From Alphaproteobacteria bacterium (GTDB lineage Bacteria; Pseudomonadota; Alphaproteobacteria; Micropepsales; Micropepsaceae), in contig WGNJ01000018.1 in the NCBI GenBank assembly GCA_016124635.1, positions 276,551 to 340,550 of the forward strand: a stretch of 64,000 nucleotides of DNA, given 5' to 3'. The translations under genes and the position numbers were made by a program. The notes under the pieces are model-generated. The model made no database searches and was not told the origin of the DNA. It saw nothing but the letters and a program-made list of their open reading frames with translations. Below, piece by piece: positions 7,026 to 29,960 of the stretch; position 1 is the first letter of the stretch; each line of letters opens with the position of its first letter.

Positions 7026-8447
7026 ATGAAGCCCTTTCCAGCCCTGCCCTATCTCTCCGGCAACTTCGCGCCGCTGCTCGTCGAGTGCGACGCCAACGAC
7101 CTGGTGATCGAGGGCGAGATGCCGCGCGATCTCAGCGGCGCACTCTTTCGCACGGGGCCCAATCCGCAGTTTCCGCCGCTCGGCAACTCGCATCATTGGT
7201 TCTTGGGCGACGGCATGGTGCACGCGCTGTTCATCGACAATGGCCGCGTCAGCTATCGCAATCGCTGGGTCCGCACGCATCAATTCAACGAAGAGCGCGC
7301 GGCCGGGCGGCGCCTTTATTCATCGGCCTTCGGCGGCGAAGCGCCCGATCCCTCGGCCGCCGGCAAGCCGCGCAACGTCGCCAACACGAACATCGTACCG
7401 CATGCGGGCAAACTCTTTGCGATCGACGAAGGTAGTTCGCCGGTGGCAATGGATCCGCGCTCACTCGATACGCAGGGCTCCTGGACGTTCGAGGGTAAAT
7501 ATCAAGGTCCAATGACGGCGCATCCGAAGATCGACGCCGAGACGGGCGAGATGTTCTTCTTCGGCTATATGGCTGCGGGACCTGGATCGCCCGATATCTC
7601 CTTCGTCGTCGTCGACAAGCACGGCAAGGTGACGCGCAGCGAGATGTTCAAGGCACCCTATGCCAGCATGGTGCACGACTTCGCGATCACCGATCAGCAC
7701 ATCATCTTCCCGATCTATCCGGCGACGATCGACGTGCAGCGCATCATGAAGGGCGGCCCGGTGATCGCTTGGGATCCCGACGCCGGCACGCATATCGGCA
7801 TCATGCCGCGCAACGGGACGATGGCCGACATCCGCTGGTTCAAAGGCCCGGCGGCTTACGCCTACCACCCGCTGAACGCGTACAGCGAAGGCGGCAAAGT
7901 CGTACTCGACCACATGGTCTATCCGCGCGTCCCGCTGTTCCCGAACGCGGACGGCTCGCGGGCGCCGGCGGACATCGCCGATCAACCGGCGCGGCTCGAA
8001 CGGTGGACGTTCGACCTTTCGAACAACAGCGACAGCTATAAGCGCGAGGTGCTCGACGATCTTGCGACGGAGTTTCCACGCATCGACGATCGTTGGACCG
8101 GACTCAAACATCGCCACGGCTATGCCGGCGCGATCACGGGCGCGAAGCTGCCCGGCTCGCCGTTCGACACGATCGCGCACTACGACCTGAAGACGGGCGC
8201 GCGGGAGATCTGGAAACCGGGCGCCGGCAATTTCGTCATGGAGCCGGTCGTGGCGCCGCGCGGCCCAGGTGAAGCGAACGGCTACGTGCTGACGCTCGTC
8301 TACCGCAGCGAGACCAATCTCAGCGATCTCGTCGTGCTCGACGCGAAGAACATCGCCGCCGGTCCGGTCGCAACAGCCAAGCTGCCGGTGCGTGTGCCGT
8401 TCGGCTTCCACGGCAATTGGCTCGCCGCGGCGCAGGACCGCGCCTAA
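7026..8447 (+). CDS. carotenoid oxygenase family protein (carotenoid/apocarotenoid/stilbene cleavage dioxygenase)
   Basis: N-terminus PYLSGNFAPLLVECDANDLVIEGEMPRDLSGALFRTGPNPQF and conserved His-containing blocks (MTAHPKID, MVHDFAIT, YHPLNAY, FGFHGNW). Confidence 0.9.
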   Translation: MKPFPALPYLSGNFAPLLVECDANDLVIEGEMPRDLSGALFRTGPNPQFPPLGNSHHWFLGDGMVHALFIDNGRVSYRNRWVRTHQFNEERAAGRRLYSSAFGGEAPDPSAAGKPRNVANTNIVPHAGKLFAIDEGSSPVAMDPRSLDTQGSWTFEGKYQGPMTAHPKIDAETGEMFFFGYMAAGPGSPDISFVVVDKHGKVTRSEMFKAPYASMVHDFAITDQHIIFPIYPATIDVQRIMKGGPVIAWDPDAGTHIGIMPRNGTMADIRWFKGPAAYAYHPLNAYSEGGKVVLDHMVYPRVPLFPNADGSRAPADIADQPARLERWTFDLSNNSDSYKREVLDDLATEFPRIDDRWTGLKHRHGYAGAITGAKLPGSPFDTIAHYDLKTGAREIWKPGAGNFVMEPVVAPRGPGEANGYVLTLVYRSETNLSDLVVLDAKNIAAGPVATAKLPVRVPFGFHGNWLAAAQDRA

Positions 8448-8457
8448 CCTGCTTGCA

Positions 8458-8483
8458 GTCGGTCCGCGCGTGCGCGGACCGAC
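8458..8483 (+). terminator. GC-rich hairpin after the dioxygenase gene (11-bp perfect stem, 4-nt loop)
   Basis: GTCGGTCCGCG-CGTG-CGCGGACCGAC, 11 nt after the stop. No U-tract follows. Confidence 0.45.
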
Positions 8484-8611
8484 CTCGATTAAGTGCTCCG
8501 ACCACCTTCCTCTCATGATTTCAGTGGCTTAGATCCATCGCCGCTCATGCGACGCATTCGCTCTTGACGGTTCCTCTTGCGACTCATTATCAAGCGCAAA
8601 AGGATTCCTCA

Positions 8612-8956
8612 ATGAGTCAAGCGGTTCGCAAATTTGCAGCGTGGGCAATCGTCTGCTGGCTGAGCACCGGTGCCGGTGCGCTGGCCGATGATCTGCCGAC
8701 CTTTGAGCTCGCGATCAAGGACCATCACTTCGTCCCCGAGACGCTCACCGTTCCGGCCAACACGAAGTTCAAGCTGCTGGTCAAGAACCAAGACCCGACG
8801 CCCGAAGAGTTCGAGTCTTATGAGCTGCACCGCGAAAAGGTCGTGCTCGGCAACTCGGAGATCGTCGTCTTCATCGGGCCCCTTGACCCCGGCACCTACC
8901 CCTTCTTCGGCGACTTCAATCAGAATACAGCTCGCGGAAAGCTCATCGCGAAATAG
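8612..8956 (+). CDS. periplasmic cupredoxin-like protein (FtrB-like partner of FTR1 permease)
   Basis: Signal peptide MSQAVRKFAAWAIVCWLSTGAGALA, then a cupredoxin-like beta-sandwich pattern (LTVPANTKFKLLVKNQDPTPEEFES...GTYPFFGDF). AAGGA SD sits before ATG 8612. Confidence 0.75.
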   Translation: MSQAVRKFAAWAIVCWLSTGAGALADDLPTFELAIKDHHFVPETLTVPANTKFKLLVKNQDPTPEEFESYELHREKVVLGNSEIVVFIGPLDPGTYPFFGDFNQNTARGKLIAK

Positions 8957-12736: not shown

Positions 12737-13061
12737 GCAATTCGTACATGCTCGCTCGACTTTCCGACTCGCGGTGCTCACTGGTCCGACCTCTGAAGCT
12801 CTATTGGCAGCCGTCAGAGACGATCGACCTTCGTGCGCTCGCTGATCTCGCTCTTGTGACTGAGGGCATGCTTTGGCCGGCCCCGGCTCACCAAAGTTAA
12901 CCCGGCCAAAAGCCTGCCCTTCCGGCGCTGGAGCAGAGAGCATTCTCCTATGAGGCGAGTGGCCGCAGTTCTTGCACCGGTCGCGGAGAGCGCCGGGGGT
13001 TGCGATCCTTTTTAGAGTATCGCATCTCTCCCGACCGCACTTCGTTCGAGGTTTGAGCACA

Positions 13062-15140
13062 ATGAAAAATCTGAGCCGTCGCGTTTTGATCGCGGGCGCC
13101 GCCGTTGGCGTTGCCGCTGCGTCGATCGCATTCGCCTTGCAGAGCAGCGTTGCCGCCCCCGGCGGCAAACCGGAAATCGGTTCGTGGGGCTTCGACCTTG
13201 CGGGCATGGATCGTTCGGTGAAGCCGGGTGACGATTTCTTCCGCTATGCCGGCGGCACCTGGATGAAGAACACGCAAATCCCGGCCGAGCGCACGCGCTG
13301 GGGCTCTTTCGATATGCTCGCCGCCCAATCCGAGCAGGACGTCAAGGACCTCGTCCAACAGGTTTCCAGTCACGCGCAGGCGCCGGGCTCGATCGAACAG
13401 AAGGTCGCCGACTTCTACTCGTCCTACATGGACACCAAGGGGATCGAAGCGGCCGGACTCAAGCCGTTCCAAGGCGACCTTTCGCGCATCGCCGGACTCA
13501 AGACGATGGACGACGTTGCCGCCTTGATCGGCGATCCGGCCTTCGCGGGCGATGCGCCGTTCCTGTGGGGCGTCGGACTCGACGATAAGAATCCGGACCG
13601 CTATTCGATCGACATCGTGCAATCCGGCCTCGGCTTGCCGGATCGCGACTATTATCTCAAGGACGATCCGAAGTTCGTCGAAGCGCGCACAAAGTACCGC
13701 GCTTACGTCGAGCAGATGCTGAAGCTCGCGAACTATCCGGATGCGGCGAAGGCCGCGGACGCGATCGTCGCCGTCGAACACAAGATCGCCGAAGCGCATT
13801 GGCCCAACGAGAAGCGGCGCGACGTCGAGCTCGCTTACAACCCGCGTACGCTCGCGGAGTTGAAGACGTCGGTGCCTGATTTCCCATGGGACGCAGCGCT
13901 GAATTCGTCCGGCATCAGCAGCCAAAACTTCTTCCTGTTGCGTATGCCGGAGCCGATAGCGAAGCTTGCAGCGCTGATGAAAGCGACGCCGATCGAGACG
14001 TGGCGCGCCTATTTCACCTTCCATTATCTGAACGCGCAGGCGGACATCATGCCTGTGGCCTTCGACGACGCGGCGTTCGAGTTCAACGGGCGCGTGCTCA
14101 ACGGTCAAGAGCAGAAGCTCGAACGGTGGCGCCGCGCGGTGCAGGCGCTGTCCGGCCGCTACGGTGAGCGGCCGCTGGGCCAGGGCGTGGGTGAGATCTA
14201 CGTCAAGACCCACTTCACGCCGGAAGCCAAGGCGCAAGTGCGTGAGATCGTCGACAATCTGCTCGCGTCCTATCGCGACCGCATCTCCAAGCTCGCGTGG
14301 ATGAGCCCGGAGACGCGCAAGGTCGCGATGCGCAAGGCCCAGACGGTCCGTATCAAGATCGGCTATCCCGACGAGTGGCGCGACTACTCGGCGCTCGAGA
14401 TCAAGCCGGGCGATGCGTACGGCAACCGCGTCCGCGCGGCCGTGTGGGATTGGAAGCGTCAAGCCGTCCGCCTGGCGCAGAAGACGGACAAGAGCGAATG
14501 GGGCATGAGCCCGCAGACGGTCAACGCCTATTACAATCCGACGTGGAACGAGATCGTCTTCCCGGCCGCGATCCTGCAGCCGCCGTTCTTCGATCCGAAC
14601 GCCGACCCCGCCATCAACTACGGCGGCATCGGCGGCGTGATCGGCCACGAAATGGGCCACGGTTACGACGATCAAGGCGCCAAGTCGGACGAGAACGGCA
14701 TCCTGCACGTGTGGTGGAACAAGAAGGACATCGAGCGCTTCCAGGTGAAGGTGAAAGCCCTCGCCGCGCAGTACTCGAAGTTCGAGCCACTGCCCGGCTT
14801 GCACGTCAACGGCGACTTCACGAGCGGCGAGAACATCGGCGACCTCGGCGGCGTGACCGTTGCGCATGCAGCCTACCTGCTCTCGCTCAAGGGCAAGACG
14901 CCGCCGGTGCTCGACGGCTTCACCGGCGAGCAGCGGTTCTTCCTGGGATGGGCGCAAGTTTGGCGCTCGCTCCAGCGCGACGCATCACTCCGCGTGCAGG
15001 TGACGAGCAACCCGCACTCGCCCGCCGAATACCGTTGCAACGGCGTCGTGCGCAACGTCGATGCCTGGTATTCAGCGTATGACGTGACCTCCGGCGACAA
15101 GCTTTATCTTGCGCCGCAGGACCGCGTGCACATCTGGTAA
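13062..15140 (+). CDS. M13-family zinc metallopeptidase (PepO/endothelin-converting-enzyme-like), paralog 1
   Basis: HEMGHGYDDQG (HExxH), GENIGDLGG, NAYYNPTWNEIVFPAAILQPPFF. The N-terminus MKNLSRRVLIAGAAVGVAAASIAFA is Tat-like. Confidence 0.93.
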   Translation: MKNLSRRVLIAGAAVGVAAASIAFALQSSVAAPGGKPEIGSWGFDLAGMDRSVKPGDDFFRYAGGTWMKNTQIPAERTRWGSFDMLAAQSEQDVKDLVQQVSSHAQAPGSIEQKVADFYSSYMDTKGIEAAGLKPFQGDLSRIAGLKTMDDVAALIGDPAFAGDAPFLWGVGLDDKNPDRYSIDIVQSGLGLPDRDYYLKDDPKFVEARTKYRAYVEQMLKLANYPDAAKAADAIVAVEHKIAEAHWPNEKRRDVELAYNPRTLAELKTSVPDFPWDAALNSSGISSQNFFLLRMPEPIAKLAALMKATPIETWRAYFTFHYLNAQADIMPVAFDDAAFEFNGRVLNGQEQKLERWRRAVQALSGRYGERPLGQGVGEIYVKTHFTPEAKAQVREIVDNLLASYRDRISKLAWMSPETRKVAMRKAQTVRIKIGYPDEWRDYSALEIKPGDAYGNRVRAAVWDWKRQAVRLAQKTDKSEWGMSPQTVNAYYNPTWNEIVFPAAILQPPFFDPNADPAINYGGIGGVIGHEMGHGYDDQGAKSDENGILHVWWNKKDIERFQVKVKALAAQYSKFEPLPGLHVNGDFTSGENIGDLGGVTVAHAAYLLSLKGKTPPVLDGFTGEQRFFLGWAQVWRSLQRDASLRVQVTSNPHSPAEYRCNGVVRNVDAWYSAYDVTSGDKLYLAPQDRVHIW

Positions 15141-20277: not shown

Positions 20278-20428
20278 GCGACTCCCCACCGCTCGCAATC
20301 GACGAGCGACATCTGTGCAGCGGCGAAACGGCTCGCAGGATCGTGATGCGGTCTGACGCGTCTGTGTGTTGTTCGCGATGCCAGTGCGCATTGAAGCTCT
20401 GCTTCAATCAATTCTCTGGGGAGAGACC

Positions 20429-22504
20429 ATGCCAAAGCTGACGCGCCGCCTGCTGATGGCCAGCGCCGCCGCTGCCGCCGCGACCACCACGCTTGCCGTT
20501 TCGTTCAACACGATTGCCGCGGCATCCGGAAAGCCGGTGATCGGAAATTGGGGCTTCGACCTTTCGAGCATCGACACGTCGGTGAAGCCGGGCGACGATT
20601 TCTTCCGCTACGTCAACGGCAACTGGCTGAAGAGCACCGAGATCCCGCCCGATCGCGTGGTTTGGGGCTCGTTTCCGATGCTGATGGCGAAGGCGGAGGA
20701 AGACACGCGTAAAGTCATCGTCGCCGCAGCGTCCCATTCCAACCGGCCCGGCTCGGTCGAACAAAAGGTCGCCGACTACTACAACTCTTATATCGATACC
20801 GATCGGATCAACGCGCTCGGCATGAAGCCGTTCGAGAGCGACCTTGCAACGATCGCCGGGCTCCAATCGCACGAGGACGTGGCGCGCTGGATGGGGCGGC
20901 CGGACGTGGCGGTGAACGGACCGGTCGGCAGCTTCTTCTTCATCGATCAAAAGAACCCGGACCGTTATTCGCTCGAACTCGTTCAGGCCGGTCTCGGTCT
21001 GCCTGATCGCGACTACTATTCGAAGCCGGACGAGCAATTCGCGAAAACGCGCGCCGCCTATCGCGCCTACGTCGAGAAGATGCTCTCGCTCGTGCACTAC
21101 GCCGACGCGGCGGCGCGCGCCGACCAGATCATGAAGCTCGAGACCCAGATCGCCGAGCGCCAATGGCCGCTCGAGAAGCGCCGCAACCGCGATCTGAATT
21201 ACAATCCGAAGACGCGCGCGGAGCTCAAGAGCTTCGCCGGCGGCTTCCCGTGGGACGACTACTTCTCGAGCGAAGATTTGCCGGAGCAATCTTTCCTCGT
21301 GCTTCGCAACCCCGAACCGGTGCAGAAGCTGGCACAGCTCTTCCGCTCGACGCCGGTCGAGACGTGGCGCGCCTACCTCACGTTCCACTATCTCAACGGC
21401 ACCGCCGACATCATGCCCGCGGCGTTCGACGACGCATCGTTCGAGTTCAACGGCAAGGTACTGCTCGGACAACAACAGCAGCGCGACCGCTGGAAACGCG
21501 CGGTGCTGGCGATCACCGGCCCCTACGGGGGCCAGCCGCTTGCCGAGGCCGTCGGCCAACTCTATGTACGCGACAACTTCTCGCCCGATGCGAAAGCCAA
21601 GGTGCGCGAGCTCGTCGGCAACATTCTGGCCGCCTATCGCGCGCACATGCAGAACCTGGATTGGATGTCGCCCGAAACGCGCCAAGCGGCGATCCGCAAG
21701 GTGAATTCGGCACGCATCAAGATCGGCTTCCCGGATACCTGGCGCGATTATTCGACACTCGAGATCAAGCCCGGCGATGCCTACGGCAATCGGCAACGCG
21801 CCGCGCTTTGGGATTGGATGCGCCAAGCACGGCGAATGACGCAGCCCGCGGACAAGGCCGAATGGGGCATGGCGCCGCAAACCGTCAATGCGTACTACAA
21901 CGCGCAGTGGAACGAGATCGTGTTTCCGGCCGCGATCTTGCAGGCGCCGTTCTTCGACCCGAACGCGGATCCCGCGATCAATTACGGCGGCATCGGCGGC
22001 ACGATCGGCCATGAAATGGGCCACGGCTTCGACGATCAGGGCGCCAAGTCCGACGAGCATGGCGTGCTGCACACGTGGTGGAGCAAGCAAGACATCGACC
22101 GCTTCAACAAGAAGGCGCACGCGTTGGCGGCGCAATACTCGCAGTACCAGCCCCTGCCCGGCCTGCACATCAACGGCGATTTCACGTCGGGCGAAAACAT
22201 GGGCGATCTCGGCGGGCTGACCATCGGCTACGCGGCGTACGAGCTTTCGCTGCACGGTCAGAAGGCGCCCGTGCTCGACGGGTTCACCGGCGAACAGCGC
22301 GTGTTCCTGGGCTGGGCGCAGGTGTGGCGGTCCAAGTATCGCGACGAGGCGCTACGTGCGCAGGTGACGAGCAATGTGCATTCGCCGGGGCCCTGGCGCT
22401 GCAACGGCATCGTGCGCAATGTCGACGGCTGGTACGACGCGTTCAACATCAAGCCCGGCGACAAGATGTACCTGGCGCCAGGTGAGCGCGTGCATATTTG
22501 GTAA
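20429..22504 (+). CDS. M13-family zinc metallopeptidase, paralog 2
   Basis: HEMGHGFDDQG, GENMGDLGG, NAYYNAQWNEIVFPAAILQAPFF. Tat-like MPKLTRRLLMASAAAAAATTTLA. Collinear with 13062..15140 along its full length. Confidence 0.93.
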   Translation: MPKLTRRLLMASAAAAAATTTLAVSFNTIAAASGKPVIGNWGFDLSSIDTSVKPGDDFFRYVNGNWLKSTEIPPDRVVWGSFPMLMAKAEEDTRKVIVAAASHSNRPGSVEQKVADYYNSYIDTDRINALGMKPFESDLATIAGLQSHEDVARWMGRPDVAVNGPVGSFFFIDQKNPDRYSLELVQAGLGLPDRDYYSKPDEQFAKTRAAYRAYVEKMLSLVHYADAAARADQIMKLETQIAERQWPLEKRRNRDLNYNPKTRAELKSFAGGFPWDDYFSSEDLPEQSFLVLRNPEPVQKLAQLFRSTPVETWRAYLTFHYLNGTADIMPAAFDDASFEFNGKVLLGQQQQRDRWKRAVLAITGPYGGQPLAEAVGQLYVRDNFSPDAKAKVRELVGNILAAYRAHMQNLDWMSPETRQAAIRKVNSARIKIGFPDTWRDYSTLEIKPGDAYGNRQRAALWDWMRQARRMTQPADKAEWGMAPQTVNAYYNAQWNEIVFPAAILQAPFFDPNADPAINYGGIGGTIGHEMGHGFDDQGAKSDEHGVLHTWWSKQDIDRFNKKAHALAAQYSQYQPLPGLHINGDFTSGENMGDLGGLTIGYAAYELSLHGQKAPVLDGFTGEQRVFLGWAQVWRSKYRDEALRAQVTSNVHSPGPWRCNGIVRNVDGWYDAFNIKPGDKMYLAPGERVHIW

Positions 22505-23877: not shown

Positions 23878-26223
23878 TCATCGCAAAAAGGCGCGCAGGC
23901 CGATAAATGCGGCAATGGGGGCACCAGGGCTTTGGAAGCGGTTGTCGGCATCGGCGCTGTTTGCCGGGACGCCTGGAGCGCCGATGCCCGCGGGGTCACC
24001 GAGCACGCCGAAGCTCGCATACTTCGCATCGAAGACGTTCTCTATTCCGGCGAACAAGTTCAGACTCTCCGTCGGGCTGTAATTCGCGTGGAGATTGACG
24101 AGCGCATAACCGGGCACCGGCGACATCTGGTTGGACTCGTCACCGCGGTAGAATTGCTCGCTGACAAAGACAACGCTGCCGCCGATCGTGATGCGCTGCT
24201 CAATCTTGTAGTCAAGCCCAGCTTTGACTCGGTGACGTGGAATACCCGGCAGGCGATCGCCAGCCTCGACCTCGATGTTGCCGTCCGTGTCCTGAAAGGG
24301 ATTTGAGGGCGAGTGCAACGTGAGCGGCGATAGGAATGTTGCGTCTACGAGGCTGTAGTTCAGATAACCGCTGAACCGGTCGTCGCGATAGTTGACGCCG
24401 GCCTCTATCCCTTGGCGACGCGTTCCCTCGATGTTCTGAAAGAAGCCCGCATTGAGCGACGTCGCCACGCCGTAGATGTCGTCATCAAGATCGGTTCTGA
24501 AGGCGCTGACATTCCAACTGACGCGCGCTTTCACAGCGTCGATGTCGAATGCACCGCGAACGCCGGCTTCGAACGTGTGCGCAACCACCTGCCGAAGCGT
24601 GGGCGGGTCGCTCGAAAGCGACGACGGCAACAGGCACGGGTGATCCGGATCCGAACATTCGATCTCACTAGGCGTTGGCGTGCGGTTGGCCTCAGCGTAT
24701 CCGGCATAAGCGGTCATGCTTGGCGTGAGCTTGTACGTGGCGCCGACCGCTGGATTGACCCGCTGGTAGTTGCTATCGCCGTTCAAGCTGATGCCCAGCC
24801 GATCGTTCAGTGCGATGCGTGCGTCGTTCCAGCGCACGCTCGCCGTTATCGCTAAGTGCGGTGTCACATCGAGCGTGTCCGTTGCATAGACGCCGTAATA
24901 CGTGGTCCCCGCGCCGAGGCTGACGGGCGTTGCATTGAAATCCGTCCCTTCGGGCGTCACGACGAAGAATCCTGACGGGAGTACGCGCAGCTTCGTATCG
25001 ATAACGCCGACCTCGGTCGCCGTATTGAAATCGGTCCGTGCGTGATCGATCGAGGCTCCGATAGCAAAATGGTTTTCGCCTCCGAAGATTGGCGCGATCG
25101 ACATCGCTTGAACCGTGCCGCCGGTGCCGCGCGAACGGATGGCTTCAAAGTCGTTTTGTCCGATCGGGATCGTGCCGCCTTGCGACAGATCGGGGATCGT
25201 AGCGCCATTGCCGTCGATGAGCGGCGTGACTTCATCGTCTTGGCACAGCGCGTCCGGCGCTGAGGAGCACGCGCTATATTCCGTCGTGTTACCGTTGACG
25301 ACGTTCTGTCGAAATGCGCGATAATACGCGTTCGCCTGCAGCGATAGCGTTTCTGTTACGGCGAGGGCGCCGTTCAGGGTGACGAAACTCAATCGGTCGA
25401 TATTGCTCTGCGGGCTGGTGAACACGAGCGCACGGTCGACCGCAAGCTCCTGCACAGGAGCCGGCGACTCGCCGGACAGGTGATTATCGGCGCCAGTGAA
25501 GCTAAGATCGATGGACGCAGTCTCCGTGCGATACGTCAAGTCGCCATAGAGTTGGCGCAGCGAACTCGGTGAAAACTCGCGCCAGCCGTCTTCGTCCAGC
25601 CACGTGCCGGCGATATAGGCAGCGAAATTGCCCTCGCTCGTGCCGAGTTCTCCCGAAGCGGTCCAACGGCCAAAGGAACCGCCCGATACCTCGCCGTGTG
25701 CTCCCGGCGCGTTGAAGCCGTTTTTCATCGAGACAATCACGGCGCCGCCAAGAGCATTCAGTCCGTAGACGGGGTTTTCGCTTATGAGGTCGATGCGCTT
25801 GATCGCGATCGACGGTACGAAGTCCCAGTTGACGGAATCGCCGAACGCTTCGTTGATGCGCACGCCGTTCTCAAAGACCGCAAGACCCTGAGGCGTGCCG
25901 AGCACAGGCGACGCCTCGAATCCGCGAAACAAGATGTCGGGTTGAAAGGGGTTGTCCAGGTTGTCGTTGATGCTGACGCTTCCGAGCGTGTTTTGAAGAG
26001 CCCGTGTTGCGCTCGCCGGCCCTTCGCGGTCGATATCGTCGGCCGAAAGCGTTTGGATATTTTGCGGCAGCTTATCTCTGTCGACGCCGGTCCCAGGAAG
26101 CGGCGTTGTGCCGACGACGACAACGTGCTCGATGGGCGGTTGATCTGCCGCGGCCACAGGGTCGACGAGGCCCCAACAGACCGCCATGCCGCAAACCACG
26201 CACCTGATTTTTGGTGCAACCAA
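23878..26223 (-). CDS. TonB-dependent outer-membrane receptor
   Basis: Plug motifs (NPFQPDILFRGFEASP, GVRINEAFGDSVNWDF, ENPVYGLNALGGAVIV) and a large beta-barrel region. TTG 26223 gives a signal-like LVAPKIRCVVCGMAVCWGLVDPVAAA. The ORF is open to 26340. Confidence 0.9.
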   Translation of the reverse strand: MVAPKIRCVVCGMAVCWGLVDPVAAADQPPIEHVVVVGTTPLPGTGVDRDKLPQNIQTLSADDIDREGPASATRALQNTLGSVSINDNLDNPFQPDILFRGFEASPVLGTPQGLAVFENGVRINEAFGDSVNWDFVPSIAIKRIDLISENPVYGLNALGGAVIVSMKNGFNAPGAHGEVSGGSFGRWTASGELGTSEGNFAAYIAGTWLDEDGWREFSPSSLRQLYGDLTYRTETASIDLSFTGADNHLSGESPAPVQELAVDRALVFTSPQSNIDRLSFVTLNGALAVTETLSLQANAYYRAFRQNVVNGNTTEYSACSSAPDALCQDDEVTPLIDGNGATIPDLSQGGTIPIGQNDFEAIRSRGTGGTVQAMSIAPIFGGENHFAIGASIDHARTDFNTATEVGVIDTKLRVLPSGFFVVTPEGTDFNATPVSLGAGTTYYGVYATDTLDVTPHLAITASVRWNDARIALNDRLGISLNGDSNYQRVNPAVGATYKLTPSMTAYAGYAEANRTPTPSEIECSDPDHPCLLPSSLSSDPPTLRQVVAHTFEAGVRGAFDIDAVKARVSWNVSAFRTDLDDDIYGVATSLNAGFFQNIEGTRRQGIEAGVNYRDDRFSGYLNYSLVDATFLSPLTLHSPSNPFQDTDGNIEVEAGDRLPGIPRHRVKAGLDYKIEQRITIGGSVVFVSEQFYRGDESNQMSPVPGYALVNLHANYSPTESLNLFAGIENVFDAKYASFGVLGDPAGIGAPGVPANSADADNRFQSPGAPIAAFIGLRAFLR

Positions 26224-26435
26224 ACCGCCTCCCCTCGTTACCCCACAGTTCGCCGCTTTTGGCGGGAGTCCGGATTTCCGTCGCAATGGACTACACGCCG
26301 GTGTTTGTCCTGTCACGCGAGTACGTTCGACGGATTTCAAGTTGGTGTCCCGGGGACTGTTCGGCCTTCGAGCGCTCGACTATTCGTCAACGCCCTAGCG
26401 GGAAAGGAGGCATTGCCCGTAATTGCGATAAAAGC

Positions 26436-26464
26436 TTGACAGATTGCGACTTTTGCAACAATAT
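26436..26464 (+). promoter_or_regulatory. near-consensus sigma70-type promoter TTGACA-N17-CAATAT
   Basis: Read directly in an AT-richer stretch about 90 nt upstream of ATG 26556. It is flanked by direct ATTGCGA repeats at 26422 and 26443. Confidence 0.5.
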
Positions 26465-26555
26465 CGGCGACGCGATCGATCAAGCTGCCGGGCTTGCGCC
26501 CTGCCCCTCGCGGATCGCGACCGCTCGCCCTCCCAACTCACTGCAGATTCACGCC

Positions 26556-27038
26556 ATGCCGAACAAACCGTCGCGCACGCCCGAAGGCGATGCGCGCTTT
26601 TTCATTGCGCTCGAAAACGGGCACGCCGTGGCGGCCGCCTGCAAGGCCGCCGGCTACGCGCGCAGCCGCGTCTATGCCTGGCGGCATGAGGACGCCGAAT
26701 TCGCGGCGCACTGGGACGCAGCGTGTGCCGTCGCCAGCGATCTGCTCGAGGAAGAAGCCGACCGGCGCGGCCGCGACGGCTACGACGAGGCCGTCTTCTA
26801 TCGCGGCGAAGAAAGCGGAACGCGGCGGAAATACTCGGACGGCTTGCTGCTCGCGCGGCTCAAGGCGCTGAAGCCCGAGAACTATCGCGAAGGTATGACG
26901 GCCGCGACCGGCAAGCTCACCGTGATCGTTCGCGATTTCGACGCCGAGGCCGCGCTCAAGCAACTGATCGCCGAGAAGCGGTTGTCGCCGGACGAACTGG
27001 AAGAGGGCTTGCGACGACGGCTGACGAGCGAGACGTAG
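26556..27038 (+). CDS. phage terminase small-subunit-like HTH protein (orphan)
   Basis: N-terminal HTH-like ARFFIALENGHAVAAACKAAGYARSRVYAWRHEDAEFAAHWDAA, followed by RGRDGYDEAVFYRGEESGTRRKYSDGLLLARLKALKPENYRE. That pattern is typical of small terminase/HTH phage proteins. No other phage genes are nearby. Confidence 0.6.
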   Translation: MPNKPSRTPEGDARFFIALENGHAVAAACKAAGYARSRVYAWRHEDAEFAAHWDAACAVASDLLEEEADRRGRDGYDEAVFYRGEESGTRRKYSDGLLLARLKALKPENYREGMTAATGKLTVIVRDFDAEAALKQLIAEKRLSPDELEEGLRRRLTSET

Positions 27039-27150
27039 CTGTTCGGAGCGGGATTGCTTTCGATTGAGTTCTATGGCGTGCTTGCAAGGTTCTACCGCGC
27101 CGTAGCGTAAACGAGCTGCACACAAACTCTTCAAAAGGAGTAAGCGCCTT

Positions 27151-27624
27151 ATGAGCATTCGCCTGCTAAGAATCTCAGCGATGACGCTGCTTGCAGCCGT
27201 GTTCGCTTTGTCGGCTGCCGTCGAAGCCGCTAACGCAAAGGGTTTCCAGCGTATTCAAAACCGCTGGAAACCGAACGAGTACATTCACATCGAGAACGGC
27301 GAGGTCGAAGCCGGACCGATCGAACCAGGCTGGTGGAGCGCGCAGTGGAAGATCGAGCGTGTGGACGGCTTCGTCCGCTTCAGGAACAAATGGAAGCCCG
27401 ACCAGTATCTCCACGTCGAGCATGGCGAGTTGGAGGCTGGGGAAATCGAGCCGGGCTGGTGGAGCGCAATGTGGATTCTCGAACCGGCGGAAGCGGGCTA
27501 TGTCCGGATCTGCAACCGTTGGAAGGAGGGCACGTGCATTCATATCGAACACGGTGAGATCGAGGCCGGCCAAGTCGAGGACGGTTGGTGGAGCGCCATG
27601 TGGCGCCTGCGCCCGGCGAACTGA
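27151..27624 (+). CDS. secreted protein built from three internal 42-43 aa repeats (beta-trefoil-like)
   Basis: Signal peptide MSIRLLRISAMTLLAAVFALSAAVEAANA. Three copies of G[FY]xR[IF]xN[RK]WK..xY[IL]H[IV]E.GE[VLI]EAG.[IV]E.GWWSA.W. AAGGAG SD lies upstream. Confidence 0.8.
   Translation: MSIRLLRISAMTLLAAVFALSAAVEAANAKGFQRIQNRWKPNEYIHIENGEVEAGPIEPGWWSAQWKIERVDGFVRFRNKWKPDQYLHVEHGELEAGEIEPGWWSAMWILEPAEAGYVRICNRWKEGTCIHIEHGEIEAGQVEDGWWSAMWRLRPAN
27241..27621 (+). repeat. intragenic tandem triplication (units 27241..27366, 27367..27495, 27496..27621)
   Basis: The protein-level repeat is obvious by eye. The nucleotide units are diverged but alignable (for example GGCTGGTGGAGCGC recurs in each unit). 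Confidence 0.85.
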
Positions 27625-27647
27625 CCTTTAGATTTGGACTCAAACTC

Positions 27648-27676
27648 AACGGGCGCCATTGCGGCGCCCGTTTCGT
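27648..27676. terminator. hairpin terminator between convergent genes (AACGGGCGCC-ATTGC-GGCGCCCGTT, then TCGTT)
   Basis: 10-bp perfect stem 24 nt after the stop at 27624. On the minus strand it lies about 130 nt beyond the stop of 27805..29655. Confidence 0.7.
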
Positions 27677-27804
27677 TGACAACGCCTCGCCGGCTGCTTG
27701 CGGGAAGAAGACACTGAACCGCGGTGATAAATGGGACGGGCTCGCGCTACCCTGTCTCGTGCCTAGACGCGAAGGGCATGCCAAGCCGGACAACAGCGGC
27801 GATC

Positions 27805-29655
27805 TCAATGCGGCGGCCAGACGATGTCCGCGTCTTCTCCGGCTCCGCCAGGTTCGCCGTCGCGGCCGAAGCTCTCGAGCGTGATGGTCCCCTCGGACGA
27901 AAGGCGATAGACGAACACGCGGCCCCAACCGTCACGCAGCATTTCGTCGTTAGCTAGAAGCGGGCTGGTCGCCGTCGATCCCGGTGTGGCGCGCAGCAAG
28001 GAAGCCAGCGTGTCGGGATACTTGCCTTCGAGCAGGCGATACGCCTCAAGCGCGCTTCCGATCGTCGCGATACGCGCGCGCGTCGTTCTCTCGTGCGCCG
28101 CAGCGGCACCGCGCATGAGATCGATCACGGTCAACGCGATGAGCGGCGTGACAATCGCAACGACGGCCAATGCGTCTACAAGCGCCGCAAGGATCGGCCG
28201 GCGCCGCACCGGCGGTGCGTCCAAGGAGACCTCGCTCATCGCAAGATCGGATTGTGAACGGAGTGCTTGGCGCAGCGCCGCGGTGTAGCTCGCGCTGGTC
28301 GATGTCGCGGCCGTCAATATCTTCAAGCGGCCCGTCGCCGTGCGATACCAGCCTATGCAAGCGCGCTTGCCGCCACCTTTCGTGTGCGGAAGAGCGTCGC
28401 TCGGCAACGACATCTCGCGCTGAAGAAGCCGCTGTGCCGCCTCACCGTGCGCAAGATGCGGAGGCAGAATAAACAACGTCTTCTGCTCATGACCGGCGGC
28501 GCGAATATGGCCGAGCTCCCAAAGGACGCCGTCCGTGTTGTCCATGACGACGACGACCGCACGCGCTCCATTCGCAAGCTTGGCGACGGCATCTTTCCAA
28601 TGACTCTCATCGACGAAGGTGCGCGCGGCGCCGAACGGCGCGGGCCGGCCCGGCAGACCGATAGCGACGACGGGACCGATCGGCGTACCTTCTTCGAACA
28701 GGAGGTGATCGAAACGCGGGCGGGGCTCGCCCAGCGACATGAGCCAGCGGAAGGGTCCGCGTCTCGGGCGCTTCAGCTTGACCTGATCGTCGCCGAATGA
28801 CCGCAGGAAGAGGATCGCGGGCCGATGGTCGACGGAGGCGATGGACTCAAGGGAGTTGCGCGCGGTCGTGCGCGCGAGCCACCGCAGCGCCGCCGAGATC
28901 GCCAACAACGCCGCAACGATAAGGGGAATGAACACGACGGTTCCAAGGCGTTCGGCGCAGTGAAGGGCCTCAACTTGGCCGGGCTTGAAACAGGCGGCGA
29001 CGTCGGCCGCTTGATCGCGCAATCCGCCCAAAACAAAGACGATAGCGATCCCGGCGCCCAACGACAGCGCAAGCGTCGTCGCGGCAAAGAGAGTGGCGGC
29101 CGCAACCCGCCTTCCGCTGCTCGGCAGCCACGCGCAAATCGGATGAATATTGAGGAGGCTCGCCGCCACGCCCGCGACATTCGCACGACCCGGCGCGATC
29201 GCGGCGACTGCGTTGCGGACATTGCGTCGCGCCGTCACGAGACGAAAGCCGTCGAGCGTTACGCGCAGCGCGAATCCTAGGGCAAGAACTGCGCCCGCTA
29301 CGTTCATGCCGATCTCGACAGCGTCGCCGGAGGCGAGGAGATTGGTGAGATCGATCGCGCCAAAGGCGAATACAAAACCGAACAGCACCGTGCCGACAGC
29401 GAGCGGAACGCGACGGAAGAGGACCATGCTCAAGGTCCAAGGCAGGGCGGTCATGAGGAAGCCAAGCGCGATGGCCATCATCGTCGGCCAAATCGGCCCC
29501 ATCGTCGCCGGACCTATCGCGGCGGTTACCAGCAGAAGGATGACCGACAACAATAGAAAGGCCGAAGCGAAAGCCGCCAGAAACGAAGCCGCCGCCATGC
29601 CTTTGGCGATGGGATCGAGCGCGACCTCGTCGAATTCGGCTGAGCGTTGGTCCAT
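27805..29655 (-). CDS. polytopic membrane protein with unassigned central alpha/beta module and C-terminal T2SS pseudopilin G-like domain
   Basis: About 6 hydrophobic helices (29655..28828). A soluble module starting ILFLRSFGDD (28827..28207). A TM helix plus GspG-like HERTTRARIATIGSALEAYRLLEGKYPDT...LRDGWGRVFVYRL...ESFGRDGEPGGAGEDADIVW (28206..27805). The start is ATG 29655 or 29703, and the ORF is open to 29955. Confidence 0.8.
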   Translation of the reverse strand: MDQRSAEFDEVALDPIAKGMAAASFLAAFASAFLLLSVILLLVTAAIGPATMGPIWPTMMAIALGFLMTALPWTLSMVLFRRVPLAVGTVLFGFVFAFGAIDLTNLLASGDAVEIGMNVAGAVLALGFALRVTLDGFRLVTARRNVRNAVAAIAPGRANVAGVAASLLNIHPICAWLPSSGRRVAAATLFAATTLALSLGAGIAIVFVLGGLRDQAADVAACFKPGQVEALHCAERLGTVVFIPLIVAALLAISAALRWLARTTARNSLESIASVDHRPAILFLRSFGDDQVKLKRPRRGPFRWLMSLGEPRPRFDHLLFEEGTPIGPVVAIGLPGRPAPFGAARTFVDESHWKDAVAKLANGARAVVVVMDNTDGVLWELGHIRAAGHEQKTLFILPPHLAHGEAAQRLLQREMSLPSDALPHTKGGGKRACIGWYRTATGRLKILTAATSTSASYTAALRQALRSQSDLAMSEVSLDAPPVRRRPILAALVDALAVVAIVTPLIALTVIDLMRGAAAAHERTTRARIATIGSALEAYRLLEGKYPDTLASLLRATPGSTATSPLLANDEMLRDGWGRVFVYRLSSEGTITLESFGRDGEPGGAGEDADIVWPPH

Positions 29656-29960
29656 CGGCCTCGTCGCGAGTTCCCGTTGAATCCGGCACGAATTCGCAGC
29701 CATTTGCAAGATTCGGGCGCAACGGATTCCTTCTCGCAATCCAACTACGCCTGAGGCGTGAAGAAGGACAGGACAAACGAGACGGCTCGCGCTTTGCCGT
29801 GTCTCGTGTCCCGGCGCGCGGGGCGCGGATTTGCGCAGCGCATGACGTTTGAAACAGGACACGTGCGAGACGGGTGACCCCTGTCTCGTTTGTCTCGCAT
29901 GTCCCGCTTGAGGCGGCGCCAGGCCACCTGCTAGCGTCGGCCTCAAGGGAGACATTCATC

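Follow-up and report, generated by a model that had tools for sequence, protein, structure and literature searches.

An internal pseudopilin domain without a prepilin motif, joined to a six-helix membrane domain and a Rossmann-like domain in an uncultured alphaproteobacterium

The window analysed here, which is the whole 64-kb stretch taken from contig WGNJ01000018.1 of the alphaproteobacterial assembly GCA_016124635.1, contains a gene at 27805..29655 for a protein of 616 amino acids (plus the stop codon) which combines three parts: an N-terminal domain of six transmembrane helices, a central alpha/beta domain of predicted Rossmann-like fold, and a C-terminal pseudopilin module made up of a seventh hydrophobic helix (TM7) and a globular head of the GspG type. 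All coordinates are positions in the window, and the target gene and its features lie on the minus strand throughout. What defines type IV pilins and pseudopilins is a class III signal at the N-terminus, whose cleavage releases the subunit from the membrane for polymerisation. The pseudopilin of the present protein is internal and has no such signal. What is new is the combination of an internal, apparently uncleavable and complete pseudopilin with an unannotated core of six transmembrane helices and a Rossmann-like domain; the pilin fold and modular receptors as a kind are already known. A search of the literature for proteins with a fused T2SSG domain, or with pilin-like modules that stay uncleaved, produced nothing relevant, and no described fusion of this type was found.

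The globular head (27820..28116, residues 514-612, predicted to be periplasmic) is identified by the Pfam family T2SSG (PF08334), which matches the last ~100 residues of the protein with E=1.1e-16 and 61.3 bits, against a cutoff of 21, over positions 3-106 of the 108 in the model. Searches with phmmer match the structures of EpsG, XcpT and PulG, and the profile of the C-terminal 138 residues of the pseudopilin-bearing clade described below matches GspG chains in the Protein Data Bank (PDB) with E-values from 3e-21 (XcpT) to 1e-13. The assignment of the C-terminal domain to the pseudopilins, which a preliminary description of the stretch had proposed from the letters of the sequence, is therefore far beyond chance. 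The NCBIfam equivalog model for GspG, TIGR01710, gives 54.7 bits, under its cutoff of 88.85, and its alignment opens at position 5 of the model, within the hydrophobic helix.

That helix, TM7, occupies 28123..28197 (residues 487-511, from hydropathy) and has the residues RRR ahead of it on the predicted cytoplasmic side. In the profile-to-PulG alignment, which spans PulG residues 3-120, the helix lies opposite PulG 3-25, with the clade residues l-i-D opposite L3-L4-E5, and the helix also aligns with the N-termini of type IV pilins in the PDB. The equivalent of the pilin Glu5 in this alignment is Asp494 (28174..28176), and its column contains Asp in eight, Glu in two and Gly in one of the 11 homologues, so that it is acidic in 10 of them. 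Because the helix is aligned on the N-terminus of PulG and an acid stands in the Glu5 column, TM7 is, by this comparison, the alpha1-N helix of a pilin together with its signature acidic residue. In the preliminary description the alpha1-N segment figured as one hydrophobic helix, and the acid was missed.

A regular-expression scan of the whole protein finds no class III signal (Gly-1, G/FTLIE), and there is no match to the Pfam N_methyl family. The residue at -1 relative to the Asp aligned with Glu5 is Leu, and the residues that precede the helix are not Gly or Phe and vary among the homologues. Both the absence of the prepilin motif and the internal position of the domain, which begins at residue ~487, are thus as first described. 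Across the 64-kb window there is likewise no second T2SSG-like or pilin-like open reading frame (ORF) and no prepilin motif. Because the module contains no cleavage site, the pilin head would probably be held permanently on the periplasmic face of the membrane.

The head ends in a calcium-loop motif, GRDGEPGGAGEDAD (27826..27867, residues 597-610), in which the pattern G-x-D-G..GG.GED.D is invariant in the clade. In PulG the calcium ligands are D117 and D125 (PMC13081927); an Asp opposite D117 is present in all ten aligned sequences, and the GEDAD motif does not vary. These calcium-site residues and those that define the fold are still invariant at a module identity among homologues of 31-39%. 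The contacts that hold a filament together follow a different pattern. In PulG and OutG pili, E44 and D48 of subunit P pair with R87 and R88 of subunit P+1 (PMC13081927, PMC6692295), and these contacts are highly conserved and essential for assembly (PMC13081927; PMC6692295). Among the ten aligned clade sequences the D48 position is Glu (8) or Gln (2), the E44 position is G, A, V, S or T and acidic in none, R87 is deleted in 9/10, and R88 is Arg in only 2/10. Because the fold and calcium motifs are invariant while the R87/R88 and E44 contacts have been lost, the head is, on this alignment, selected for its fold and for calcium binding but not for every contact that a homopolymer requires.

The module resembles GspG (PulG/XcpT/EpsG; PF08334, TIGR01710) in its hydrophobic alpha1-N with an acid at position 5, its long alpha1-C, its DPWG..Y motif, and its calcium loop of the form SLGxDG..GG.G.DAD with the Asp117 equivalent invariant, but differs from it in having neither a leader peptide nor a Gly-1/Phe+1 site for cleavage and methylation, in beginning some 487 residues into a polytopic protein, in scoring under the equivalog cutoff, in not keeping the Arg87/Arg88 and Glu44 contacts, and in having no gsp operon nearby. 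It can also be compared with the uncleaved prepilin, which is the inner-membrane state that precedes processing by PilD/GspO. Like the uncleaved prepilin, the present module is predicted to have its basic residues in the cytoplasm, its alpha1-N helix across the membrane and its head in the periplasm, but here the “leader” is a folded protein of 486 residues, there is no cleavage motif, and the state is presumably permanent.

The gene that encodes this protein is real and is conserved in uncultured Alphaproteobacteria. Its close relatives amount to only 13 clusters at 90% identity, among which is P0001, the window's own protein. The pseudopilin is absent from two of the 13, and its ending is kept in ten besides P0001 at 39-54% identity. 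Seven of these ten have the full three-part architecture (39-47% identity, 97-98% query coverage) and come from the independent metagenomes of the JGI, ENA and Logan data, while the three others are truncated at the N-terminus with the T2SSG end still present, so the layout that was first described for a single ORF is kept in independent homologues. A neighbour-joining tree built from the central domain groups the 11 sequences that bear a pseudopilin in a single clade with no others, which indicates that the pseudopilin fusion arose once and has been retained since.

The bounds of the gene required some revision. The longest ORF at the locus runs over 27805..29955, and the NCBI record MBI1213109.1 (716 residues, start at 29955, named “hypothetical protein”) is the same protein of this metagenome-assembled genome (MAG) called from the maximal ORF. 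The preliminary description had placed the start at 29703, and the sequence that it quoted from there matches the translation of the minus-strand ORF exactly, but the homologues and an independent gene call favour 29655. The homologue alignment begins at MDQRSAEFDEVAL (MDQRS/MGKNE), that is, from the ATG at 29655 (protein N-terminus MDQRSAEF...); P0001 is an identical protein called with 616 residues on an independent assembly and contig; and GAGG lies directly 5' of this ATG. The true start is therefore most likely the ATG at 29655, 48 nt inside 29703, and the coding sequence given above follows from these three observations and the ORF list.

A protein of such mixed composition could be produced by a frameshift or an assembly chimera, and signs of a split or chimeric gene were not found. 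The GC content at third codon positions (GC3) is 0.74-0.76 and alike in all three modules. Since codon-position GC is uniform and the full-length homologues are conserved, a chimera generated by frameshift or misassembly is excluded, as it is also by the independent identical contig. One homologue, L009 (8001-9845, from the MAG CAWHLV01, near-identical to P0003), is disrupted by two frameshifts, both in the stretch that links TM5 to the central domain. The record name of this MAG points to the MFD series, which we take to consist of long-read assemblies; if so, the frameshifts are likely to be indel errors of the assembly rather than the marks of a pseudogene.

The N-terminal domain (28870..29655, residues 1-262) contains six helices in the hydropathy scan, at approximately residues 20-46, 58-78, 84-104, 113-134, 184-211 and 237-258, with the seventh at 487-511; this agrees with the six hydrophobic helices and the soluble domain of ~200 residues which had been placed ahead of the pilin part. 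The loops after TM2, TM4 and TM6 and the segment ahead of TM7 are rich in Arg, and those after TM1 and TM3 are free of Lys and Arg. Because the loops follow this positive-inside pattern, the N-terminus and the central domain are predicted to be cytoplasmic and the pseudopilin head periplasmic. A loop on the predicted cytoplasmic side carries the motif GIHPICxWLP (29122..29151, residues 169-178), which is followed by RR and then by TM5; I170, H171, P172, I173, C174, W176, R182 and R183 are invariant in the clade alignment, and in a broader alignment of 44 family sequences the conservation of G169 and C174 is 90% or more. The TM5-TM6 loop, predicted to be periplasmic, contains the Cys pair C222/C233 (28957..28992), which possibly forms a disulfide; in the clade alignment C222 does not vary and the conservation of C233 is 90% or more. 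The six-helix domain gives nothing significant in Pfam, NCBIfam, PADLOC or the PDB. AlphaFold models it as a helical bundle with a predicted local distance difference test (pLDDT) value of ~90, and a hidden Markov model of the domain matches dozens of family members, including FGE-sulfatase and TPR fusions.

The central domain (28246..28854, residues 268-470, ~200 residues) is a predicted cytoplasmic alpha/beta domain, modelled with AlphaFold2. Its first strand carries the motif ILFLRSFGDD (28786..28815, residues 281-290), with conserved Arg285 and Asp289/290; L282, F283, L284, R285, S286, F287, D289 and D290 are invariant in the clade, and across the broad alignment the conservation of the L, R and F is 90% or more. 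A further motif, DNTDGVLWELGHI (28504..28542, residues 372-384), contains Trp379-Glu380, which begin the helix after the third core strand. In the broad central-domain alignment E113, which corresponds to Glu380, and W86 are invariant, and W112 is at least 90% conserved. The conserved polar residues of the domain are Arg285 (in LFLRSF), Arg345 (in GAAR) and Glu380 (in WE), and Glu380 is a candidate active-site or ligand residue. The model of the central domain alone has a pLDDT of 90.1 and a predicted template-modelling score (pTM) of 0.87. Residues 1-481 were also modelled jointly, with a pLDDT of 89.2 and a pTM of 0.89, and because they model well together the transmembrane bundle and the Rossmann-like domain would form a fixed, tightly packed unit, as the model implies.

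The statement in the preliminary description that the central module could be placed in no family has stood up. There is no significant match to the domain in Pfam (E<=10) or NCBIfam (43 members each), in PADLOC, or in the PDB by sequence-profile search, and Foldseek comparison of both models with the PDB gives none at E<=1e-3, the best neighbours from named families having E>=2.9e-3 and template-modelling (TM) scores of 0.3-0.5. Against BFVD the central domain has one match to an unnamed viral protein at E=8.8e-4. The weak structural neighbours that recur are CoaB, KefC-KTN, DNPH1, nucleoside 2-deoxyribosyltransferases (NDT), LOG-family proteins, DprA/YpsA and ThsB/TIR. The LOG-family entries (9us2, 5wq3, 1wek, 1weh, 1ydh) have E-values of 0.1-1.3 and TMt of 0.3-0.42, and those for DNPH1 have E-values of 0.05-0.06, probabilities of 0.89-0.94 and TMt of 0.44-0.52. 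At one strand-helix motif, that of the invariant Glu, there are weak Pfam matches to TIR_2 (PF13676, E=0.057) and SLOG cluster4 (E=0.18), of which the TIR_2 match is sub-threshold and occurs in only 1/43 family members.

Two of these identities were compared by profile, and neither gave a significant score. The TIR idea arose from the LFLRSFxDD and WEL motifs and from the TIR_2-WD40 neighbour of one homologue; hhalign comparison of a 163-sequence family profile with a 90-sequence TIR_2 profile, itself narrow and drawn from one subfamily, gives a probability of 0.4%. For DNPH1, whose human query sequence was checked against the PDB, hhalign sets WE380LG opposite YE104LG, where Glu104 is catalytic, over 61 columns at 26% identity, but the score of 11.8 falls within the range of shuffled controls (7-17), so that a DNPH1/NDT identity is not significant. 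In its model the domain resembles LOG/SLOG, NDT/DNPH1 and TIR by a three-layer alpha/beta fold and by a conserved Glu at the point where a helix begins behind a core strand (D.T.GV.WELGH in the present protein, SLGVGYELGR in DNPH1); it differs from LOG, NDT and TIR in having no significant sequence, profile or fold score, in a long insertion after strand 1 and in an extra beta-hairpin. The best Foldseek match to the whole model, KefC-KTN/RCK (9emb_A), likewise pairs a transmembrane bundle with a docked Rossmann-like domain, but at E=0.024 and a TM score of 0.17 this is no fold match, and the GxGxxG dinucleotide motif is absent. The description that fits the domain best is that of a Rossmann-like domain as yet unassigned, perhaps distantly related to the LOG/NDT/TIR group.

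The preliminary description had missed that the central domain is one member of a very large, unannotated family. Its profile matches 8,324 representative clusters (50% identity) at E<=1e-3 and 3,934 at E<=1e-10; P0001 itself matches at E=1.1e-98, a value to be read with the fact that the profile includes P0001. The loci lie in Alpha- and Gammaproteobacteria, Actinomycetota, Verrucomicrobiota, Acidobacteriota, Nitrospira, Gemmatimonadota and others. Members are named “hypothetical protein” in their sources, with the exception of one copy on a Streptomyces plasmid, L054 (5260-6777, Streptomyces sp. NBC_00984 plasmid NZ_CP108736), which is the sole and weak plasmid match by tblastn and which RefSeq names “transferase”; no domain was found in it to back this label. 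Among the 189 members compared, the commonest architecture consists of five or six transmembrane helices followed by the central domain, and smaller forms with one to three helices occur. By these matches the six-helix and Rossmann-like domains together make up a core that is conserved throughout this very large family, itself uncharacterised.

Members extended at the C-terminus have a common plan, in which a basic stretch leads to a single transmembrane helix and then to a module outside the cytoplasm. The outside module is WD40 in P0127, TPR in P0082, P0157, P0162 and P0168, and FGE-sulfatase in P0103. Other members have additional transmembrane segments and are transporter-like: P0063 (782 residues) has an N-terminal BPD_transp_2, P0133 (724 residues) a weak C-terminal BPD_transp_1, and P0079 (627 residues) a DUF805. 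The pseudopilin sits in the same C-terminal slot, and because that slot holds TPR, WD40 and FGE-sulfatase modules in relatives, the head is, as far as domain layout can tell, one of several exchangeable extracytoplasmic modules. Receptor Ser/Thr kinases are bacterial membrane receptors which have swappable outside TPR, WD40 and FGE-sulfatase modules. The present family resembles them in having a cytoplasmic domain, one transmembrane helix and a variable outside module from the same repertoire, but its cytoplasmic domain is no kinase or known signalling enzyme, and a conserved bundle of six helices is added. To our knowledge, a pseudopilin has no precedent as the outside module of proteins of the receptor Ser/Thr kinase type.

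We consider it somewhat better than an even chance that the protein is a receptor-like inner-membrane protein, in which the uncleavable pseudopilin head would serve for binding or docking as a module tethered in the periplasm, with the six-helix/Rossmann-like unit as the conserved working core. The pseudopilin helix would enter the membrane from the cytoplasmic side, as that of an uncleaved prepilin does, and because of this the head would be displayed in the periplasm and remain covalently tethered there. The head could then pass signals to the core formed by the membrane and Rossmann-like domains, or determine where that core is located, and the core, with its invariant Arg/Arg/Glu, would most plausibly bind or process a small phosphorylated or nucleotide-like ligand. 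An anchored periplasmic role in sensing or docking had been suggested at the outset; it is strengthened by the positive-inside topology, the Cys pair and the slot for modules in relatives, and falls short of proof.

Several observations weigh against the receptor-like interpretation. The retention of an acid buried in the membrane suggests interactions specific to pilins, and a generic sensor module leaves that acid unexplained. The topology is drawn from hydropathy and positive-inside loops, the core model covers residues 1-481, ahead of TM7 and the head, and the proposed class of ligand derives from weak fold neighbours (E>1e-3, TM scores of 0.3-0.5) and a non-significant motif likeness. Nor does the gene neighbourhood suggest a partner: the trefoil-like and helix-turn-helix genes beside the target, whose recurrence was in question from the outset, recur only on the identical contig, with the other homologues adjoining unrelated genes, and clustering of the ORFs of 43 genome loci produced no conserved partner.

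The buried acid would be accommodated if the module docks under a growing type II secretion system (T2SS) endopilus or a related type IV filament as its last subunit, capping or anchoring the base; the calcium-stabilised head that docking would need is also kept. The Glu5-like Asp and the Asp48-like Glu would bind the subunit above, and the filament would be coupled to the six-helix/Rossmann-like core; no next subunit could be added, because the module has no free N-terminus and no Arg87/Arg88. This would agree with the acid retained at the Glu5 position in 10/11 homologues despite its location in the membrane, with Glu or Gln at the Asp48 equivalent in all ten sequences (8 E, 2 Q) where Arg87/Arg88 are mostly deleted or non-basic, and with the need for the E44/D48-R87/R88 contacts in PulG and OutG assembly (PMC13081927, PMC6692295), and it would mean that the assembly of pseudopili can be regulated or sensed by a route not known before. 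We nevertheless regard it as unlikely, given that there is no gsp, pil or tad gene in the 64 kb or beside any homologue looked at, that Glu44 is lost (though XcpT also lacks it), and that the TPR, WD40 and FGE modules in the same slot of sister proteins argue for a generic module.

The sister proteins could also be given a different meaning, in which the variable C-terminal modules are sensors of invaders, as in STAND and TIR systems, and the protein is a conflict or defence effector with a divergent nucleotide glycohydrolase or nucleotide-sensor domain of the TIR/NDT/SLOG type and a transmembrane bundle that damages or gates the membrane. We regard such an effector as likewise unlikely. DNPH1, nucleoside 2-deoxyribosyltransferase, TIR/ThsB, LOG, DprA and YpsA do recur as named fold neighbours, and the weak TIR_2 (E=0.057) and SLOG (E=0.18) matches fall at the motif with the invariant Glu, but the TIR_2 hhalign probability is 0.4% and the DNPH1 score equals that of shuffled controls. 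As to context, P0003 adjoins TIR_2-WD40 and TPR-S genes, and the target gene has a GC3 below that of its flanks and adjoins an orphan terminase-like helix-turn-helix gene; against this, there is no PADLOC match and no nucleotide cyclase or other partner conserved nearby, and most homologue contexts consist of housekeeping genes. The variable modules are also extracytoplasmic, which sets them apart from the classical sensors of conflict systems. The least probable explanation by far is that the ORF is a chimeric artefact or the pseudopilin segment a decaying, non-functional relic. The two frameshifts of the L009 copy and the three N-terminally truncated homologue entries speak for this explanation, but they are set against seven more full-length clusters at 97-98% coverage, the identical 616-residue call on an independent contig, a head whose fold and calcium-site residues are invariant at 31-39% module identity, and codon-position GC that is even across the modules.

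A conserved, internal and apparently uncleavable pseudopilin with a Glu5-like acid would show that this fold is also usable as a domain fixed in the periplasm, and would provide a natural “non-extractable pilin” for probing the docking of subunits at the assembly platform. The family of more than 8,000 clusters across many phyla is a candidate for a new class of transmembrane receptor or effector. The interest of the pseudopilin form is limited by the small size of its clade, and its function has been deduced from sequence and models.

The rest of the window, judged from the neighbours sampled, is ordinary chromosome, with genes for M13 peptidases, a metallo-beta-lactamase-fold protein, a CDF transporter, a TonB receptor, an SDR, an RND pump, CtaA and a P-type ATPase. 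The ORF and motif scan found no gsp, pil or tad genes in the 64 kb, as had been reported, and no T2SS Pfam family occurs beside five homologues. Families recurrent in the 43 loci are only generic ABC ATPases and SDRs, plus an upstream membrane gene in five of them. In these five loci (L036, L037, L040, L042 and L048, four of them gammaproteobacterial by record name) the family member overlaps an upstream gene for a polytopic membrane protein of ~430-460 residues, with a 4-nt overlap of the ATGA type in L036 (5686-7062 / 7059-8654). The upstream gene is conserved across the five and has no Pfam match, and in this branch of the family its product may act as a partner. In two other loci, L001 (1747-7777) and L002 (566-6635), P0003 lies directly downstream of genes for a divergent 1,211-residue TIR_2-WD40 protein and for a TPR-S protein, which are typical of conflict systems; this arrangement occurs beside P0003 and beside no other homologue.

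Next to the target, on the plus strand at 27151-27624, lies a trefoil-like gene for a predicted secreted protein of 157 residues with three repeats of ~43 residues (..NRWKPxxYxHxExGExEAGxIEPGWWSAxW..), for which the only match is a sub-threshold RicinB_lectin_2 at E=0.0016. It is preceded by the orphan helix-turn-helix gene (26211-27038, plus strand), which is likely to be shorter than this (160 residues in the L052 call) and has a weak likeness to the small terminase subunit of Sf6 (E=3e-5, below the cutoff); no other phage genes were noted nearby. The TonB receptor, the trefoil-like gene and the target, which together lie within 23878-29655, have GC3 values of 0.72-0.75, against 0.83-0.88 in the flanking SDR, RND and peptidase genes, and the 24-26 kb bin has the second-lowest GC content, 0.597. 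This segment may be a small block that was acquired or is less adapted. Two paralogous genes for M13 (neprilysin-like) peptidases, at 12972-15140 and 20366-22504, both on the plus strand, stand ~5 kb apart.

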